This document shows positions 1-10,983 of a stretch of 24,324 nucleotides of DNA, piece by piece. The translations under genes and the position numbers were made by a program. The notes under the pieces were generated by a model. That model ran no database searches. It was not told where the DNA came from and worked only from the letters and a program-made list of their open reading frames with translations. Source of the DNA: a virus; the UHGV virus genome UHGV-0175638; one strand, 5' to 3'. Positions within the stretch are counted from its first letter, which is position 1. Each line of letters opens with the position of its first letter.

Positions 1-66
1 CTATCGCGCGAGGAGATTTTGAGGATGGTTGAGAGGGTTGCAGGGTAGTAGATAAGTTTTAGATAA

Positions 67-92
67 CAAAAAACCCATTTATGTAAACGGGT
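67..92 (-). terminator. Putative rho-independent terminator downstream of the 110-aa gene
   Basis: Imperfect hairpin ACCCATTTA/TAAACGGGT at 73-92; on the minus strand it is followed by a T-run (plus-strand A-run 67-72). Confidence 0.3.
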
Positions 93-227
93 TAATGAAA
101 ACAATAAGTTAGAGTAAAAACAATAAGTTGGGTTGGTGGTCAGTGGTGGTTATTACGGGGTAATGCCAACCGCTGCCGCCACTTTGTCGCCATTTGGAAG
201 AACCCGGTTGTGCTGCCAATTTGCATG

Positions 228-560
228 CTAACGGATAGAACCATCAGGATATAAGTACACGCCACCCTCTAGATACATTGGCTCACCATCTTCAACTGCA
301 ATATCTTGATAAAGTTCAGCCAGTTCATTAGATTCATTTTTTACAAGATTATATGTATCAACATCATACCCAAGGATTTTTAACTCATCATCTGAGGTTG
401 CTCCTTGTTTTTGCTTAAGCGCAACAATATCAAAAATCCACTTTTTGCCATCTTTAACGTAGTACGCCCCAGAATCATAACCACGATCGTCAAGTACTTT
501 TTCAAATCCCATCGATAATGCTTTTTTGACAGTATGTTTTTTTACGGTAATGATAGCCAT
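228..560 (-). CDS. Hypothetical protein, 110 aa, AT-rich, beyond the integrase end
   Basis: Intact ORF with ATG at 560-558; AT-rich relative to the phage core; no motif I recognise. Confidence 0.5.
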   Translation of the reverse strand: MAIITVKKHTVKKALSMGFEKVLDDRGYDSGAYYVKDGKKWIFDIVALKQKQGATSDDELKILGYDVDTYNLVKNESNELAELYQDIAVEDGEPMYLEGGVYLYPDGSIR

Positions 561-668
561 GTAATCTCTTAATATATTGAATAAAAGTGAACTTATATAC
601 TGATAAAAGTTTACTCTGACGCAATTAACTCAGCTAGTGGGGGATGATGTTATTTTTGCACCAGTAGA

Positions 669-1520
669 TCACACTTCTAGCGTTGCGAGGGGGTTGAATC
701 TCAGAGCCGTCTCAAGATGATCGGGTGCTAAATGGGCATAGCGCATAGTCATTTTTATATCGTGATGTCCGAGGATTTTTTGCAAAGCAAGGATATTTCC
801 ACCCGACATCATGAAGTGCGCCGCAAACGTATGGCGCAGAACGTGTGTCAGTTGACCGCGAGGGAGCACGATAGACGTTTTTTCCATCACGGATAAAAAT
901 TGAAAATAGCAGTCTGTAAAGAAATTGAACCCATCAAGCGCCATGATCTCTTCGTAAAGCTCTTTACTGATAGGGATGCTTCTGTTTTTCTTCCCCTTCG
1001 TTCTTACAAAGGTAATTCGGTATTTGGTCACTTGCGAGCGGGTAAGATTTATTGCTTCTCGCCAGCGTGCGCCTGTGCTTAGGCATATCTTGACTACCAG
1101 TGCCAGAATTGGGTCCTGACGTTTGCAATCAGCCAGCAGTTCAACAATCTGCTCATGGGTAAGCCATGCCATCTCTTTTTCTGCGATGGTGAATTTTCGC
1201 ATGTTCTCCAGTGGGTTCGGATACGACCATTCGCCCAGGCGGGATAGTTCGCTAAAAACACTACTTAGATAGCTTTGCTCCAGGTTAATGGTGACCGGGC
1301 TTGCTCCTTTCTTCCATTTCTCGCTGAAGTAGATCTCACCTGTCAGGCGTTTATCTCGATAGTGGGCAAACATTTTAGAGGTTAGATCAGTTGCAAGGGG
1401 ATTGCCCAGAGCGTCAACCATCAACAGCAGTTTGTCATAGACATGCTGCCCAGCTGTCAGAGATTTACCATGTAGTTTGAACCATAGCTCAATCACGTCT
1501 TTCAATGTCCGACGATCCAC
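669..1520 (-). CDS. int: Tyrosine integrase, catalytic C-terminal part (P2/186 Int family); N-terminus lies in another frame
   Basis: Tyrosine-recombinase signature: ...LSTGARWREA... (catalytic Arg region), HVLRHTFAAHFMMSGG (H-x-x-R box), LQKILGHHDIKMTMRYAHL (catalytic Tyr); strong resemblance to 186/P2 integrase as I remember it. ORF begins with GTG at 1520. Confidence 0.85.
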   Translation of the reverse strand: MDRRTLKDVIELWFKLHGKSLTAGQHVYDKLLLMVDALGNPLATDLTSKMFAHYRDKRLTGEIYFSEKWKKGASPVTINLEQSYLSSVFSELSRLGEWSYPNPLENMRKFTIAEKEMAWLTHEQIVELLADCKRQDPILALVVKICLSTGARWREAINLTRSQVTKYRITFVRTKGKKNRSIPISKELYEEIMALDGFNFFTDCYFQFLSVMEKTSIVLPRGQLTHVLRHTFAAHFMMSGGNILALQKILGHHDIKMTMRYAHLAPDHLETALRFNPLATLEV

Positions 1521-1684
1521 TGATTCGCCCAGCCAGGCTTTGCTTCGGTTTCTTCCATCGTGTGACGCTCAAAAGCCAGAGCTTCGCCTTTGGTGGCGAA
1601 TTGTTTACGCACACGACGTCCACTACGTCCGGCGGGGTAACATTCGCAAAGCCATTTTCCTGTGGTGAGTTTTCGTACTGCCAT
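1502..1684 (-). pseudogene. int: Integrase N-terminal (arm-binding) segment in a different reading frame from the catalytic part; apparent frameshift near 1505-1525
   Basis: ATG at 1684-1682 preceded by GGAGGG; translation MAVRKLTTGKW...KGEALAFERHTMEETEAKPGWANQWIVGH matches the 186/P2 Int N-terminus from memory, then stops at 1502; the catalytic ORF continues in another frame. Confidence 0.6.
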
Positions 1685-1870
1685 AAAAAATGCCCTCCAG
1701 TAGAGAGCATTTTTACTGTATGTATAACCAGTGTCAATGTATGAAATCCTGCGACCATACATCTCACTGAAGCCATAATGAAGTTAGCTATTTTTTGCTA
1801 TGTGAGTATGTGACTTTTGCGGTTAGCCTGCGGCTCATTGTTATATTAGGCGCAGATATAAAAGCAAAAT

Positions 1871-2062
1871 TTATCGCGAGTTTTTAGTACAGATTTTTTT
1901 TGATTTACTAATAGTTCCATCATTGCAAACGAACTTTCCATCGGAGGTACAGTGAGAGACACCTCCCTTTTTCCCAGAACAAGGATAATTTTTAGCATAG
2001 GTAGTTAGTGGATTTAATAACAAAGAGCATGATAAAACCACAAAAAATACCTTACCAAGCAT
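1871..2062 (-). CDS. Small secreted Cys-rich, Lys-rich peptide (63 aa), immediately downstream of cI
   Basis: ATG at 2062 preceded by GGAGGA, 15 nt after the cI stop; hydrophobic N-terminus [23 protein letters not shown] (signal peptide, possible lipobox VLSC); mature part has 4 Cys; AT-rich. Confidence 0.55.
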
Positions 2063-2077
2063 AGTTTCCTCCCGGTA

Positions 2078-2647
2078 TTACCTAACGTACTTAATTGTTA
2101 AACTTATAATTTTCCCAATTATTTCAACATCTTCTATCTTGCACTCGAAGGCTCTGTTTCCACCCTCGACGAAGATTCTTCCACCGGGTAAACGAGTAAT
2201 GTCACGGATCGTTATTTCGCCATCAATACTTATTACCCATTTACCATCACGTATATCATCAAATTCCTTATCACAAATAAATTCAGAATTATTATCTGTG
2301 ATTACAAAAAGATTCTTGAATGCCGACGGTAGAAATTCTCTATCGAAAATATAAAAACCGTCTTCACACAAGGCCCCATCAGATAATACATATTTAGCAA
2401 CTTCCATAGTATTTGTATTACCTGAAGTTTGCTTTGAACCATGCCCGGTTGTGAGCCAATTAAGTGAGGTGCCTGTTTCAAGGGCGCACTGGATTACCCA
2501 TTCTGCTGGGAATGAGTCACGCATGTAGCGTGTGGCGAGTGTACTTTTAGAGATTCCTAAATGATCGCACAACGCCTGTCGAGTCTTGAATCCATAAGCT
2601 TCTACCATGCGCTCTATAGCGCCTCGTCCGCCTTTCTCCAAATTCAT
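2078..2647 (-). CDS. cI: CI-type immunity repressor (phage 186 CI-like, HTH N-terminal domain)
   Basis: About 190 aa; N-terminal region ...IERMVEAYGFKTRQALCDHLGISKSTLATRYMR...CALETGTSLNWLTTGHG resembles 186 CI from memory; ATG at 2647 preceded by GGAG (track ORF starts at GTG 2653); divergent from apl. Confidence 0.8.
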   Translation of the reverse strand: MNLEKGGRGAIERMVEAYGFKTRQALCDHLGISKSTLATRYMRDSFPAEWVIQCALETGTSLNWLTTGHGSKQTSGNTNTMEVAKYVLSDGALCEDGFYIFDREFLPSAFKNLFVITDNNSEFICDKEFDDIRDGKWVISIDGEITIRDITRLPGGRIFVEGGNRAFECKIEDVEIIGKIISLTIKYVR

Positions 2648-2671
2648 GGTCACTCCAAGTGAACTTTTATC

Positions 2672-2700
2672 TTGACGATTTCACTGTGCGATCGTATGTT
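2672..2700 (+). promoter_or_regulatory. Candidate lytic promoter pR (-35 TTGACG, 17-nt spacer, -10 TATGTT) in the cI/apl switch region
   Basis: TTGACG at 2672-2677 and TATGTT at 2695-2700 with 17-nt spacing, about 70 nt upstream of the apl ATG. Confidence 0.5.
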
Positions 2701-2772
2701 TATGGTGTTCACAAAATACAAACGATCCGTATTCGTCCTGATTAATCATCATTAAACGAGGAATGTTGCATC

Positions 2773-2994
2773 ATGAGACCTAACATTTCAATCACTCTTA
2801 CCACGCCTCATGTGACTATTGAACGCTATAGCGAGCTGACAGGGCTATCCATCGATACCATCAATGACATGTTGGCTGATGGACGCCTTATCCGTCACCG
2901 TCTGCGCAAAGATAAAAAACGCGAAAAAGTGATGATCAACATAGCAGCAATGACCGTTGATGCGCTTTCAGAATGCAATCTAAACCTTAATTAG
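2773..2994 (+). CDS. apl: Apl/Cox-like excisionase and switch repressor (73 aa)
   Basis: First gene of the rightward early operon, divergent from cI; small basic protein with a likely HTH ([21 protein letters not shown]); position identical to 186 apl. Confidence 0.7.
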
Positions 2995-3026
2995 TTCGAT
3001 TCTGAAATACATCAGAGGCATTGACC

Positions 3027-3536
3027 ATGTTTGATTACCAAGTTTCCAAACATCCACATTTTGATGAAGCCTGTCGTGCATTCGCATTGCGCCACAACCT
3101 GGTGCAACTGGCAGAACGTGCTGGCATGAATGTGCAGATTCTGCGGAACAAGTTGAACCCAGCTCAACCTCATTTATTAACCGCACCAGAAATCTGGCTG
3201 CTTACCGATCTGACTGAAGATTCAACGCTGGTAGATGGTTTTCTGGCTCAGATTCACTGCCTGCCATGCGTACCGATTAATGAGGTGGCAAAAGAGAAAC
3301 TGCCACATTACGTCATGAGTGCAACCGCAGAGATCGGGCGTGTTGCTGCAGGTGCGGTATCTGGCGATGTAAAAACCAGTGCAGGTCGTCGTGATGCTAT
3401 CAGCAGCATTAACTCTGTAACACGACTGATGGCGTTGGCTGCTGTTTCATTGCAGGCCCGTTTACAGGCTAACCCTGCGATGGCGAGTGCAGTTGATACC
3501 GTGACTGGCCTCGGTGCTTCATTCGGTTTGCTGTGA
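3027..3536 (+). CDS. cII: CII-like transcriptional activator (186 CII family)
   Basis: About 169 aa; ATG at 3027 preceded by GAGG (track ORF starts at TTG 3021); position and size match 186 cII, and the sequence resembles it from memory. Confidence 0.7.
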
Positions 3537-4577: not shown

Positions 4578-5431
4578 GCACCATCCTGAAATGGGCGGGT
4601 AATAAAACCGCCATTATGTCCGAACTGAAAAAATACCTTCCTGCTGGCCCGCGACTGGTTGAACCTTTCGCGGGTTCTTGTGCTGTGATGATGGCGACGG
4701 ATTACCCCAGCTATCTGGTTGCGGATATTAATCCTGATTTAATCAACCTCTATAAAAAGATTGCCGCTGATTGCGAAGCGTTTATATCTCGTGCCAAAGT
4801 TTTATTTGAGGAAGTAAACAGTGAGCTGGCTTATTACAACATAAGACAGGAGTTTAATTACTCAACTGAAATTACTGATTTCATGAAGGCGATATATTTC
4901 CTGTATCTCAATCGTCACGGTTACCGTGGTTTATGTCGCTATAACAAGAGCGGGTATTTCAACATTCCCTACGGTAATTATAAAAATCCGTATTTCCCTG
5001 AAAAAGAAATTCGCGCATTTGCAGAGAAAGCCCAGCGGGCAACGTTTATCTGCGCGAGCTTTGATGAAACGCTGGCGATGCTGCAGGTGGGGGATGTGGT
5101 GTATTGCGATCCGCCGTATGACGGTACGTTTTCCGGCTATCACACTGATGGTTTCACTGAAGATGACCAGTATCACCTGGCATCCATTCTTGAACATCGG
5201 TCATCAGAAGGACATCCGGTCATTGTTTCTAACAATGACACATCCCTGATTCGTTCGCTGTATCGCAATTTTACTCACCACTATATCAAGGCAAAACGCA
5301 GCATCGGCGTGTCAGCTGGCGAGGGTAAATCTGCAACAGAAATCATTGCTGTTTCCGGGCCGAGCTGCTGGTTGGGATTTGATCCTTCGCGTGGCGTGGA
5401 TAGTTCTGCCGTGTACGGAGTGTGTGTATGA
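4574..5431 (+). CDS. dam: DNA N6-adenine methyltransferase (Dam-like, orphan)
   Basis: ATG at 4574 preceded by GGAGG; N-terminal LKWAGNK...EPFAGS (AdoMet binding) and the DPPY catalytic motif (VYCDPPYDG); no adjacent restriction endonuclease. Confidence 0.85.
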
Positions 5432-7842
5432 GTCATGACGATATGAACAATTGCAGCGGCTTTAACGAGGCCGCCGCAGCATTTTCATGGAACGGCTCGA
5501 AAAAGGCCATTAACCCTTATCTGGACCCGGCGGAAGTTGCGCCGGAGTCTGCACTTTCAAACCTGATCACTCTGTACGCTGCCGATAACGAGCAGGAGCA
5601 ACTGCGCCGCGAGGCACTGAGTGAGCAGGTCTGGGAGCGTTATTTCTTTAATGAATCCCGTGATCCTGTCCAGCGCGAAATGGAGCAGGATAAGCTCATT
5701 AGCCGGGCAAAGCTGGCGCATGAGCAGCAGCGTTTTAATCCGGACATGGTCATTCTGGCGGACGTAAACGCCCAGCCTTCCCATATCAGCAAGCCGCTGA
5801 TGCAACGTATTGAATACTTCAGCAGCCTGGGCAGGCCAAAGGCTTATTCCCGCTATTTGCGTGAGACGATTAAGCCATGTCTGGAGCGACTGGATTGTGT
5901 ACGTGACAGTCAGCTATCTGTTTCTTTCCGTTTTATGGCAAGCCATCAAGGGCTGGAGGGGCTGCTGATCCTGCCTGAAATGAGCCAGGATCAGGTGAAA
6001 CGCCTGTCCACCCTGGTAGCAGCGCATATGAGCATGTGTCTTGAGGACGCTTGTGGTGATTTGTATGCCACCGATGACGTTAAGCCAGAAGAAATCCGCA
6101 AGACATGGGAAAAGGTGGCAGCGGAAACCCTGCGTCTGGATGTTATCCCGCCTGCGTTTGAGAAACTTCGTCGGAAAAGAAACCGCCGCAAACCAGTGCC
6201 CTATGAACTCATCCCGGGTTCGCTGGCGCGTATGTTGTGTGCCGACTGGTGGTATCGGAAATTATGGAAGATGCGTTGCGAATGGCGGGAAGAGCAGTTG
6301 CGTGCTGTCTGCCTGGTCAGCAAAAAAGCATCCCCCTATGTCAGCTATGAAGCCGTGATGCATAAACGTGAGCAGCGCCGTAAGTCGCTGGAGTTTTTTC
6401 GTTCTCATGAACTGGTGAACGAAGACGGCGACACGCTGGATATGGAAGATGTGGTAAACGCCAGCAGCAGCAACCCGGCGCATCGCCGCAATGAGATGAT
6501 GGCCTGTGTTAAAGGTCTGGAGCTTATCGCGGAAATGCGCAGTGACTGTGCCGTTTTCTACACTATCACCTGTCCGTCGCGTTTCCATTCCACGCTCAAT
6601 AACGGCAGACCAAACCCGACCTGGACAAACGCGACGGTAAGACAAAGTAGCGATTATCTGGTCGGCATGTTTGCTGCATTTCGTAAGGCTATGCATAAAG
6701 CCGAGTTGCGCTGGTATGGCGTGCGGGTAGCTGAGCCGCATCATGACGGTACTGTGCACTGGCATCTCATGTGTTTCATGCGTAAAAAAGACCGCCGCGC
6801 CATCACTGCATTACTGCGTAAGTTTGCCATCCGTGAAGACCGCGAGGAGCTGGGCAATAACACGGGACCACGCTTTAAGTCTGAGCTGATAAACCCGCGC
6901 AAAGGTACGCCAACAAGCTACATCGCGAAATACATCAGTAAGAACATTGACGGGCGTGGTCTGGCTGGGGAGATCAGCAAGGAAACGGGTAAATCCCTGC
7001 GTGATAACGCTGAATACGTTAATGCCTGGGCGTCTCTGCATCGTGTTCAGCAATTCCGCTTCTTTGGCATTCCGGGGCGTCAGGCTTACCGTGAACTGCG
7101 ATTGCTGGCTGGTCAGGCGGCAAGGCAACAGGGTGACAAAAAAGCAGGTGCGCCGGTACTGGATAACCCGCGCCTTGATGCCATTCTGGCTGCTGCTGAT
7201 GCTGGTTGTTTTGCCACCTATATCATGAAGCAGGGCGGCGTACTGGTTCCCCGTAAATATCACCTCATCAGAACCGCTTATGAAATCAACGAAGAGCCAA
7301 CCGCCTATGGCGATCACGGTATTCGTATTTATGGCATCTGGTCACCCATTGCAGAGGGCAAGATCTGCACTCATGCGGTGAAGTGGAAAATGGTTCGTAA
7401 GGCCGTTGACGTTCAGGAGGCGGCAGCCGACCAGGGCGCTTGCGCCCCTTGGACTCGTGGCAATAACTGTCCCCTTGCTGAAAATTTGTACCAACAAGGG
7501 AAAGACAAATCAGCTGATGGGGATACCAGAACGGATATCACCCGTATGGATGACAAGGAGTTGCACGATTACCTGCACAGTATGAACAAAAAAGAGCGCC
7601 GGGAACTGGCTGTAAGGTTACGCCTGGTGAAACCGAAACGGCGTAGAGACTACAAACAGCGAATTACAGACCATCAACGACAGCAGCTCGTCTATGAACT
7701 GAAGTCCAGAGGATTTGATGGCAGCGAGAAAGAGGTCGATTTACTCCTTCGCGGCGGCAGCATTCCGTCAGGAGCAGGCCTGCGTATCTTCTATCGGAAC
7801 CAGCGTTTGCAGGAAGATGATAAGTGGCGGAACCTGTATTAA
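5428..7842 (+). CDS. A: Rolling-circle replication initiation protein (P2 gpA / 186 A family)
   Basis: About 804 aa; HUH-type motif [10 protein letters not shown]; start ATG 5428 overlaps the dam stop (ATGA), implying translational coupling; size and position match gene A. Confidence 0.85.
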
Positions 7843-8769: not shown

Positions 8770-9939
8770 GTGATGATAAGTTTAGAAAAATTTCAAATTT
8801 CCAATTTTTGGGGTTCGAAAAATATTACTTTAGATTTTCATAGTAAGTTTGTGATCCTAACAGGACACAATGGCTCAGGTAAATCTACCATCTTGGAGAT
8901 TCTACATGATTCATTTAGTCTTATGCATGACGGGGAAGTTCAAACTATTCATGAGTCTTGGGCTAGTGAGCTAAATTTTAGCGATGAAAGTTTAGCTAGG
9001 AGCTATTTTTTAGGTGACGATATTGAATTGCAGGATGCTTTAAAAAGAAGAATAGAAAACAGTGCAAAAAAAACTATTAAACTTGATATTTTTAACTCAT
9101 TTGATTTCATAAATAAAACAATAAATAATTACACAAAGAAAAAAAATAAAGATTTTTTAGTTAAGAAAGATTTCTCCTCATCATTAAAGAAAAAATCTTT
9201 TATGACTATGCAGTATCATCCAACAAAAGATGATATGAAATTTCCTAAAACTATTTTCTTTAAAGATAGCCGAGTCCTCTATAACACGGTTAGCGATGAA
9301 GTTAAAGAAGTTAACGACTTAGATATATTCAACGAAGCAGACAGCATTAACAAGACACTTTACTTACTAATGAGTTCTTTCATTATTGAGGAGTCTAAGA
9401 ATAAAAAGCTGAAGTTCAAAGATAAAAATGAATTAAAAAAGATGTTTATAAATGAATTAAAATCAGAACAAGCTTTTATGGGGGAGCTAAAAACGTCTGA
9501 TGAACAGTTAATGTCAAAGCTTGAAAGTTTGGTTGATAGAGTGTTTTTAAAAGAAATAAAAAATAATTCGTGGGGTGGGGGGCTTTTTTCAGCAATAAAT
9601 GAATTCCTAAAGAAAACAAAAAGAAGTGTGACTAGAGATGAAAAAGGTTTCATTGCTTTTAAACTTAACAATGGAAGTATTATAAAGTGGTATAATTTTT
9701 CAAGAGGTGAGAAAACTCTTCTTGTTCTTTTGTTAAGTGTTTTTTTGAATAAAGATAAAGATGTTATTTTTATTTTGGATGAACCAGATTTATCATTACA
9801 CATTGAGTGGCAGGAATTATTATTACCTAATTTGTCGCGTTTAGCTCCGGAGAGACAGTTTATATTATCTACACATTCCCCTGCTCTTGTAGGTAATATC
9901 GAAGAGCAATACTTAAATATTGCTGCTATTACGGAGTGA
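8770..9939 (+). CDS. ABC/SMC-like P-loop ATPase (389 aa), first gene of the AT-rich cargo cassette; candidate defence ATPase (AriA/OLD-ATPase-like)
   Basis: Walker A GHNGSGKST; signature-like FSRGEKTLL; Walker B VIFILDEPDLSLH; H-loop LSTHSP; long Lys/Asn-rich insert between Walker A and B; strongly AT-rich; ATG at 8773 preceded by AGGGAAG. Confidence 0.75.
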   Translation: MMISLEKFQISNFWGSKNITLDFHSKFVILTGHNGSGKSTILEILHDSFSLMHDGEVQTIHESWASELNFSDESLARSYFLGDDIELQDALKRRIENSAKKTIKLDIFNSFDFINKTINNYTKKKNKDFLVKKDFSSSLKKKSFMTMQYHPTKDDMKFPKTIFFKDSRVLYNTVSDEVKEVNDLDIFNEADSINKTLYLLMSSFIIEESKNKKLKFKDKNELKKMFINELKSEQAFMGELKTSDEQLMSKLESLVDRVFLKEIKNNSWGGGLFSAINEFLKKTKRSVTRDEKGFIAFKLNNGSIIKWYNFSRGEKTLLVLLLSVFLNKDKDVIFILDEPDLSLHIEWQELLLPNLSRLAPERQFILSTHSPALVGNIEEQYLNIAAITE

Positions 9940-9945
9940 GTTATT

Positions 9946-10983
9946 ATGGATGTTAATTCTCTCGGGTTCAAATCTCAGTCATCTTATTACAAAAAGTCAT
10001 CTATTTTTTTGGGTGAGAATCAACCAAGATGGGTTGCTGTCTGGGTCGAATCAGATGATGATAAAAAACTATGGTTTCCAGTGTTGAAGCATTCATATAA
10101 AAAAATAAACTTTAAATTTCATATTGCCTCCCTGCATAAGTTTAAAGATGGAAAGATATCTGATGGATGTTCAAGAATTTTTGCAAAAATTAAGAGCGGT
10201 GAAATTGAACTAGGAAGTTCCACAATTGCTTGCTTAGATAGCGATTACAGCTATATATCAGGTAACTATGCTTGCAAGCAAAAGGAATTATTGGAATCAC
10301 CTCATGTTTTTCAAACATATGTCCATTCTAAGGAGAATATATATGTTCACCCGATTGGAATTATTCAACTTTTTGAGCGTGCTTTAGGTGAAGACTTGGA
10401 GCAGTTAGGTATAAATGTAGAATGTTTTACTGAAAAATTATCCATCTCAATATATGAATATCTTGTAAAGTTGATATCGCTCTATCGCCTAAATGATCTA
10501 AAAGCATTCGATCTATATCATAAACAGTTCATGGATAATTTCAAAACAATTATGAATGAGATGAAATTACCAGAGGATCTCTCGTCTGATTATGAAAGCC
10601 TTTTGAAGGCGAAGCTTACTGATTTTGATACGGAACTTACACAGCATATAAAAAGCACTCATGGAATAAGTGTGATTGATGATACAAATCAAAGATTTAG
10701 AGAGATTGAAGTTAATCCGTCTGATTCATTGAACTTTATACGTGGCCATGATTTGTATCCTGTAATGATGAAAATATATAAGAGTATAGATCAGTATGTT
10801 TTCAAAGTTAAACGTGATCAATATAATCAAGAACACATATCTGATGAGATAAGGCAAAAGAAACAGAGGGAGATGGGTAATAAACGTGTGGATATTGAAG
10901 ACTTAATATGTACCCGGGGTGATGTTAAGGATAATCAATATTTCTCACGCACCATTAAGAAGCTTAATACATTGTTTGCATAG
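9946..10983 (+). CDS. Partner protein (345 aa) with Toprim-like acidic motifs (DUF4435/OLD-nuclease-like); candidate effector
   Basis: Starts 6 nt after the ATPase stop with GGAG upstream (operon); N-terminal VAVWVESDDDKK (Toprim-like E...D) and ACLDSDYSY (DxD-like); AT-rich. Fold assignment is inference from motifs only. Confidence 0.6.
   Translation: MDVNSLGFKSQSSYYKKSSIFLGENQPRWVAVWVESDDDKKLWFPVLKHSYKKINFKFHIASLHKFKDGKISDGCSRIFAKIKSGEIELGSSTIACLDSDYSYISGNYACKQKELLESPHVFQTYVHSKENIYVHPIGIIQLFERALGEDLEQLGINVECFTEKLSISIYEYLVKLISLYRLNDLKAFDLYHKQFMDNFKTIMNEMKLPEDLSSDYESLLKAKLTDFDTELTQHIKSTHGISVIDDTNQRFREIEVNPSDSLNFIRGHDLYPVMMKIYKSIDQYVFKVKRDQYNQEHISDEIRQKKQREMGNKRVDIEDLICTRGDVKDNQYFSRTIKKLNTLFA

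Follow-up and report, generated by a model that had tools for sequence, protein, structure and literature searches.

The question raised by this locus is what a short reading frame lodged between the repressor gene and the integrase gene of a temperate phage encodes and what its product does in the lysogen. The window, that is, the whole stretch of viral DNA that was analyzed (24,324 nucleotides; UHGV virus genome UHGV-0175638), carries a 63-codon open reading frame (ORF) between cI and int. We conclude with considerable confidence that this ORF is a genuine accessory gene, or moron, of a 186/P2-type Escherichia coli prophage and that it encodes a Sec-exported periplasmic mini-protein of the YdcA family; our conclusions on the function of that protein are more tentative.

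The coordinates of the features are collected in Table 1. The ORF runs on the minus strand from an ATG at 2062-2060 to a TAA at 1873-1871; the cI stop codon (TAA, 2080-2078) lies exactly 15 nt upstream, and the Shine-Dalgarno sequence stands 5 nt before the ATG, as the first-pass annotation of this DNA had proposed when it described a 63-aa ORF with a strong ribosome binding site 15 nt past the end of cI. The RefSeq name for the product of the upstream gene is "phage repressor protein CI." The same annotation had described a Lys-rich mature part with four cysteines, and this description holds: the predicted mature part (residues 24 to 63) contains 4 Cys, 8 Lys, 1 Arg, and 2 Asp and has a pI of 9.6, and a fifth cysteine, C12, sits within the predicted signal peptide. 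The conserved YdcA/Dis2-type core, from P27 to C58, is encoded at 1889-1984. The remark that the ORF is AT-rich was only partly distinctive; its GC content is indeed 34.4%, compared to 49.6% over the window, yet the downstream spacer (37% GC) and the C-terminal half of cI (34.4% GC) belong to the same AT-rich tract. The coding sequence contains two homopolymers, A8 at 1894..1901 and T6 at 2042..2047. Five database proteins (P0002, P0004, P0037, P0053, and P0058) are hybrids of the ORF and an overlapping frame at 1846..1998, and such hybrids at homopolymer runs stem either from sequencing errors or from slippage. Scans of positions 1 to 3200 of the window for Rfam families and tRNAs gave no match.

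Table 1. Features of the cI-int region and of the type VI secretion loci with a YdcA-like gene; positions are those of the window unless a locus handle is given.
Feature	Position	Strand	Basis
YdcA-family precursor CDS, 63 aa	1871..2062, stop included	-	ORF listing, NF007463, phrog_6000, RefSeq identity
cI-ORF spacer, 15 nt, with Shine-Dalgarno sequence GGGAGG at 2073-2068	2063..2077	-	Read from sequence
186-type CI repressor gene, directly upstream, same orientation	2078..2653	-	PF07022 (2.8e-33), PF16452 (8.7e-27)
Predicted Sec signal peptide, residues 1-23, signal peptidase I cut after TYA	1994..2062	-	Heuristic and family conservation
Predicted mature 40-aa peptide, residues 24-63	1874..1993	-	Invariant columns, AlphaFold2, pI
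13-bp hairpin AAAAAUGCUCUCU-ACU-GGAGGGCAUUUUU then U, terminator- or attenuator-like	1686..1714	-	MFE and centroid fold
Sigma-70 promoter-like TTGACA-17-AAAAAT upstream of int	1709..1737	-	Promoter scan, 10/12 matches, consensus only
P2-type integrase gene, in two frames	669..1684	-	PF24624, PF00589; intact 343-aa Int of EC11 as reference
Segments of type VI secretion system (T6SS) loci that contain the long YdcA-like form	L173 7003..8804 (E. coli APEC20/16); L105, L122, L128, L136, L152, L154, L155, L157, L165		

The identity of the product is clear from profile searches. It scored 116.1 bits against NF007463, the NCBIfam model of the YdcA family (PRK10040.1-2), for which the curated cutoff is 93, and it matched phrog_6000 with an E value of 4.6e-34; PF27300 is precomputed on P0001, a cluster representative that is 97% identical to the ORF product. 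The local Pfam-A release, which is older than PF27300, gave no real match, only PF22906 at an E value of 0.068. The protein is identical to WP_001321204.1, which is annotated in EC11 and REL606, is also encoded by BL21, and is already labeled by RefSeq as "hypothetical protein" or "YdcA family protein"; the first-pass annotation missed both the family name and this existing annotation. Judged by its sequence, the product is a paralogue of the chromosomal YdcA protein of E. coli. K-12 YdcA (b1419 in the MG1655 record; NF007462/PRK10040, PF27300) is 57% identical to it overall and nearly identical in the mature core, and both proteins combine a signal peptide with one domain of the form PCSGxKGG[VI]xHC...F[VI]CNDGxxSxSKKxC that contains four invariant cysteines. 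Unlike the ORF, which is prophage borne and lies within the lysogenic operon, ydcA is a chromosomal core gene (cybB-rydC-ydcA-hokB); moreover, the ORF product belongs to a sister equivalog, NF007463, and scored 68 bits against the YdcA model NF007462, where the cutoff is 118.

The family is large. When 1.84 billion cluster representatives were searched with a profile, 437 relatives at 50% identity clustering were returned, and among genomes sampled at one per species, a pattern search showed members in 158 species of Gamma-, Beta-, and Alphaproteobacteria. The YdcA core, PCSGxKGG[VI]xxC-x(3-5)-F[VI]CxDGxxSxSKxxC with its four invariant cysteines, is present in the ORF product, as are all 14 invariant columns of the family (P27, C28, S29, K32, G33, G34, C38, F44, C46, G49, S52, S54, K55, and C58). 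An AlphaFold2 model built from 38 sequences had pLDDT values of 85 to 92 over residues 31 to 60, with a short helix followed by a beta-hairpin. Across genera, pN for the domain was 0.11 to 0.16, compared to a pS of 0.85 to 1.1, which is saturated; these values point to strong purifying selection on the domain across classes of Proteobacteria. It could be argued that so short and AT-rich an ORF, with an A8 run of the kind that carries frameshifts in several database entries, is a frame open by chance or a gene in decay, with no protein product; however, a frame that exceeds a curated family cutoff, that appears to be under purifying selection across several classes, and that is intact with an invariant Shine-Dalgarno spacing in all of the 80 viral loci described below can hardly be either.

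Two labels attached to relatives of the protein deserve comment. Some UniRef entries carry the name "conjugal transfer protein," which we rejected as a guide to function: a homologue was found in only 58 of 72,556 plasmids, and conjugative plasmids showed no enrichment. The ydcA genes of the gonococcal genetic island and of F-like plasmids may share their name with this family by coincidence. The family may also resemble DUF3761.

The N termini of the family differ in sequence but agree in kind: they begin with positive charge, continue into a hydrophobic core, and close with a small-x-small site (SYA, SFA, TMA, ADA, AQA, and other variants) that stands two or three residues ahead of the invariant PCS. 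Of the 292 distinct N termini in the family, a hydrophobic core was seen in 282, and a small -3/-1 site no more than 7 residues from the domain was seen in 288; Ala at -1 is conserved in at least 90% of the family. The signal-peptide call is based on a home-made heuristic together with this conservation, and by that heuristic the ORF product has the signal peptide of its family, with TYA followed by Lys at the cleavage site. Such a conserved n-h-AxA layout in front of an invariant core argues for a Sec signal peptide that is cleaved by signal peptidase I. We predict with high confidence that the protein is exported by the Sec pathway, is cut by signal peptidase I after TYA23, yields a disulfide-bonded, basic periplasmic product, and is expressed together with CI. 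Cleavage would release a soluble, strongly basic mini-protein (about 4.3 kDa) that is predicted to be built around a pair of disulfides.

The first-pass annotation had likewise seen a hydrophobic, signal-like N terminus, and rightly so; its suggestion that this N terminus might contain a lipobox has fared less well. The cysteine concerned, residue 12 in the sequence VLSC, lies amid the hydrophobic core and is nearly absent from homologues, in which the A-x-A site is nearly universal. If signal peptidase II were to cleave before Cys12, a lipid-anchored protein of 52 aa would be left, and VLSC does formally fit a relaxed lipobox pattern, one that the E. coli prophage clade conserves; however, the signal peptide would then be just 11 residues long, with a hydrophobic core of 7 residues, and the "mature" N terminus would be the hydrophobic SLLLNPL. 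Outside the E. coli prophage clade, the lipobox pattern occurs in about a dozen scattered sequences, compared to the 288 of 292 that have A-x-A before the domain. The usual lipoprotein-profile rule expects the cysteine at positions 15 to 35, and the ORF product lacks a lipobox of the form [LVI][ASTVI][GAS]C that ends a full-length signal peptide and is conserved in homologues. A lipoprotein is, in our view, very improbable.

The position of the gene bears on when this protein would be made. In the window, cI and int are separated by 393 nt, which comprise the 15-nt gap, the ORF, and a spacer of 186 nt, and a terminator scan predicted no terminator between cI and the ORF. In the coliphage 186 record, cI overlaps int by one base, and the lysogenic operon is annotated as pL-cI-int-orf69 with a terminator at its end. 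In Haemophilus phage HP2, the homologous gene begins within the cI stop codon (TAATG), an arrangement that implies coupling with cI. Taken together, the terminator-free 15-nt gap, the operon annotation of 186, and the overlap in HP2 argue for cotranscription of the ORF with cI; this predicted cotranscription is well supported, and so is the original placement of the ORF on the lysogenic transcript. The ORF is situated as a lysogeny-module gene is, inside the lysogenic operon and in the repressor-integrase interval. It would be made with CI from the pL/pE transcript and hence would be present in every lysogen.

Downstream of the ORF, both the MFE fold and the centroid fold of the 197-nt segment at 1684-1880 on the minus strand (z-score of -3.56, beating all of 200 shuffles) contain the A-tract/U-tract hairpin listed in Table 1, which lies directly before the int ATG (1684), includes the int Shine-Dalgarno sequence GGAGGG at 1698-1693, and was not picked up by the simple terminator scan. 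Its left arm is also the -10 element of the promoter-like site. The hairpin may end or attenuate the pL transcript, and we infer an arrangement in which that transcript is terminated or silenced at the hairpin and int has its own start, whose promoter-derived transcripts would escape. In this window, int itself falls into two frames (1502..1684 and 669..1520) through the loss of 1 nt at about position 1536 (GGG to GG on the plus strand) relative to the Int gene of EC11; the frameshift is either a sequencing error or the mark of a prophage that is no longer able to excise.

The slot is conserved in related prophages, a point that the first-pass annotation had proposed to check. The cI-ORF segment was present at a coverage of at least 80% in approximately 594 of 5,426 complete E. 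coli genomes, including that of REL606, and among 80 IMG/VR loci the ORF was full length in every one, with cI 15 nt upstream (cI identity, 85 to 100%); int followed the ORF in 78 of these loci, that is, wherever the contig extended far enough. Prophages of Yersinia alsatica, Yersinia aldovae, and Yersinia nurmii (L090, L091, and L104) have the same order of cI, a YdcA-like gene, and int, with cI and Int products that are approximately 35% and 47% identical, respectively, to those of the window, and Haemophilus phages HP2 and S2 carry an unannotated 60-aa homologue straight after cI (L001 2920..3102; 2487..2669 in the HP2 record). In all of these phages, the homologue occupies the same slot, after a 186/HP1-type cI and before int; however, the signal peptides are unrelated in sequence to that of the ORF product, the cI products are only approximately 33 to 36% identical, and HP2, unlike the window, has a further exported ORF of 254 aa between the YdcA homologue and int. 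This HP2 gene, orf1(S), encodes a signal peptide together with an OB-fold domain of the tRNA_anti-like type (PF12869, 2.8e-13), and int is the next gene.

The gene is not universal among such phages. It is an accessory gene: a homologue is present in 3 of 140 phage records with a 186-type cI, and phage 186 itself lacks one. Similarity to Klebsiella phage 4LV2017 ends at position 1742, which suggests that the ORF travels with the immunity module and not with int. Phages of Moraxella, Acinetobacter, and Pseudomonas have family members in other slots. The recurrent cI-int placement across phages of Escherichia, Yersinia, and Haemophilus seems not to have been described before, and a literature search found no paper on the prophage ORF.

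What other phages carry in this interval is informative. In Escherichia phage vB_EcoM-813R9, it holds PD-Lambda-1 (PADLOC, 3e-120); in E. coli ZH48, it holds a KAP NTPase (PDC-S20, 1e-77) together with a second CI-like protein; in phage 4LV2017, it holds an uncharacterized protein of 349 aa; and Vibrio phage K139 has the order cI-orf2-glo-int, in which the annotation of Glo reads "periplasmic protein; involved in phage exclusion." The presence of PD-Lambda-1, a KAP NTPase, and Glo in this slot suggests that the cI-int junction acts as a slot for defence or exclusion cargo. The view that this position is typical of an exclusion or conversion factor, which had been put forward from the single sequence, thus draws more strength from the relatives than was foreseen; for the ORF, however, the hotspot location is an argument of guilt by association. 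A search of PADLOC-DB 2.0 with the ORF returned 0 families at an E value of 1e-3 or less, in the same run in which its slot-mates were matched. At the start of the ZH48 slot, the CI-like protein of 307 aa (L167 1568..2491) has two Phage_CI_repr HTH domains and a CI C-terminal domain and may be a second repressor or a decoy.

A parallel is Glo of the P2/HP1-like phage K139, which, like the ORF, is encoded in the cI-int interval of a PL lysogenic operon; the predicted compartment and the proposed role of the ORF product are likewise those of Glo. Glo is a protein of 137 aa and is not homologous to the ORF product; homology of the two was considered and rejected, with an hhalign probability of 2% and an alignment of the signal peptides alone. 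The proposed role would be analogous to that of periplasmic Glo. The genes for Ltp and Sie2009 are located between int and the repressor gene. Glo is a soluble periplasmic exclusion protein, and exclusion genes inside lysogeny modules, such as those for Ltp and Sie2009, are an established paradigm (PMC3952083). [quoted passage not shown]

The window has other cargo as well. A PARIS-type pair on the plus strand consists of an AriA-like ATPase gene at 8770..9939 (PADLOC, 8e-36; AAA_21/AAA_15) and a gene for an AriB-like DUF4435 protein at 9946..10983 (8.5e-19); it is placed between replication gene A (5422..7842) and the portal gene, the classical tin/old cargo site of P2-like phages. Between the rcdA-side end of the prophage and int lies an AT-rich ORF of 110 aa (228..560, minus strand; 36% GC) that had no match in Pfam, NCBIfam, PHROGs, or PADLOC. 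The DNA of EC11 differs at 228..560 and becomes similar again at 706, which points to a second variable cargo site.

Further evidence on function comes from the domain in other settings. Most relatives are stand-alone proteins of 55 to 100 aa; some have two or three tandem domains (P0079 to P0083), and many others have long tails rich in Lys, Ser, Thr, Pro, and Ala. In 7 of the 149 representatives listed (P0124, P0164, P0219, P0212, P0152, P0222, and P0225), and at one genome locus (L130 4878..5936), the domain is N terminal to a secreted nuclease, and the partners belong to three unrelated folds: SNase (PF00565), Endonuclease_NS (PF01223), and PLD (PF13091). The C terminus of P0213 was considered as a fourth nuclease fold and set aside; it is HNH-like by eye and has no Pfam match. 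Together, the nuclease fusions and the long tails suggest that the domain serves for binding or targeting outside the cytoplasm, with DNA or another polyanion as a possible ligand.

Among solved structures, the motif was matched only by Dis2 of Legionella pneumophila (Lpg0823; PDB 7MUC/7MUD, chain AN). The match had an E value of 5.8e-5 with the full-length profile and was weak with the domain-only profile (0.011); Foldseek gave an E value of 0.11, a probability of 0.96, and 39% identity. A homologue of Dis2 is assigned to PF27300 and shows two YdcA-type motifs (P0228 and P0229). A single-sequence search of the PDB with a tandem-domain relative, P0080, gave no match, and matches of the domain profile to LDL-receptor class A repeats and lysozyme (E values of 0.02 to 0.6) were rejected as reflecting cysteine pattern or composition. 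The ORF product is not itself a Dis2 protein. It is similar at the domain level only, with a single domain and with cI and int as neighbors, whereas Dis2 has two tandem YdcA-type lobes and is part of a type IVB secretion system. Dis2 has a structural role there, and no DNA binding by it is known. It has been described as a periplasmic, disulfide-pinned subunit of the Dot/Icm outer-membrane cap that adjoins the outer membrane (PMC8486379), with two similar lobes and five disulfides and with contacts to DotC, DotD, and DotK, which are lipoproteins under the outer membrane (PMC8486379, PMC12716638). According to the same papers, it lacks structural neighbors, and organisms with prototypical type IV secretion systems (T4SSs) have no obvious homologues of it (PMC8486379, PMC12716638). 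Both the nuclease fusions and the link to Dis2 seem to be new.

Outside phages, where most of the family resides, the members are chromosomal and their contexts are heterogeneous. A long enterobacterial form of approximately 130 aa is encoded right after tssJ-tssE of a T6SS and right before a PD-Lambda-1-like GIY-YIG/T5orf172 gene in nine species; beyond the GIY-YIG gene are a 3'-5' exonuclease gene, T6SS gene fragments, and a gene for an ATP-dependent nuclease. This set has the look of a defence island that entered the T6SS locus, and the nine PD-Lambda-1 neighbors are orthologous loci, not independent events. In two Brucella species (L110 and L112), the upstream neighbor of the YdcA-like gene encodes a defence helicase of the Hhe type, and one family representative is fused to a VasL domain.

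It can be envisioned from these contexts that the ORF product is an accessory of the Dis2 kind, which would dock on an outer-membrane machine of the host, such as a secretion system, a pilus, or a receptor complex, and change a surface property of the lysogen, or would help or anchor a periplasmic nuclease, and would have no part in exclusion. The contacts made by the two lobes of Dis2, the position of the long enterobacterial form after tssJ-tssE, and the VasL and nuclease fusions fit this proposal. However, the window has no T4SS or T6SS genes beside the ORF, the adjacency to T6SS genes may reflect island insertion and not a functional link, and Dis2 itself, for which no function is known, is dispensable (PMC12716638). 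We regard these docking and anchoring roles, taken jointly, as unlikely.

The chromosomal paralogue offers a different comparison. The gene ydcA is reported to be induced by acid under the control of YdcI, and its deletion in E. coli W reportedly resulted in sensitivity to 300 mM 3-hydroxypropionate (PMC7642389). These are the only phenotypes reported for the family; they suggest a role in envelope or stress physiology rather than in phage defence and, as such, count against exclusion. The prophage copy might do the periplasmic job of chromosomal YdcA as a lysogenic-conversion or host-fitness factor that has no effect on other phages, for example by protecting the envelope under acid or organic-acid stress. 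The ydcA phenotypes (PMC7642389), the level of identity to K-12 YdcA and the near identity of the mature core, and the largely chromosomal, heterogeneous distribution of the family are all consistent with such a role. On the other hand, the phenotypes come from a single indirect report that gives no mechanism, and a host-fitness function leaves unexplained both why several unrelated phage lineages have repeatedly acquired the gene and why it occupies a slot that is otherwise filled by defence genes. We consider this alternative rather improbable.

The explanation that we prefer, tentatively and with somewhat less than an even degree of belief, is that the ORF product is a periplasmic factor for superinfection exclusion or defence, a proposal that draws on analogy with its slot-mates, on the features of the domain, and on the PD-Lambda-1-like and Hhe genes beside chromosomal relatives. 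The YdcA/Dis2-type domain would serve as an extracytoplasmic binding module; in the periplasm of the lysogen, the product would bind either an outer-membrane-proximal component of the envelope or incoming polyanionic DNA, and this binding would block the entry of the genomes of other phages after adsorption. A broader version of the proposal, which is doubtful, is that the domain serves widely in the periplasm to bind DNA or outer-membrane machines and has been captured repeatedly by temperate phages of several families (P2/186/HP-like phages and those of Moraxella, Acinetobacter, and Pseudomonas) as a soluble exclusion factor of minimal, single-domain size that would stop genome entry in the periplasm.

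In conclusion, both the family and the protein encoded by the ORF are already in databases, and a moron in a lysogenic operon is a classical concept; the new leads are the cI-int junction as a slot for cargo and defence genes, the presence of the domain on secreted nucleases, and the match of the domain to the lobes of Dis2. Even if the ORF should prove to be ordinary, it is a clean example of a small gene that was overlooked in the annotations of reference phages (HP2 and S2). Approximately one-ninth of complete E. coli genomes, including that of the laboratory B strain REL606, carry it at a position from which every lysogen should make the product. Through the recurrence at the cI-int junction, the nuclease fusions, and the link to Dis2, the role of a K-12 y-gene family becomes open to direct testing, and since the mature peptide of 40 residues can be synthesized, binding and exclusion tests would be cheap. 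If the broader proposal is true, it would provide the first function for this E. coli K-12 y-gene family and for Legionella Dis2, and the cI-int junction of 186-type prophages would be a third defence hotspot of P2-like phages.
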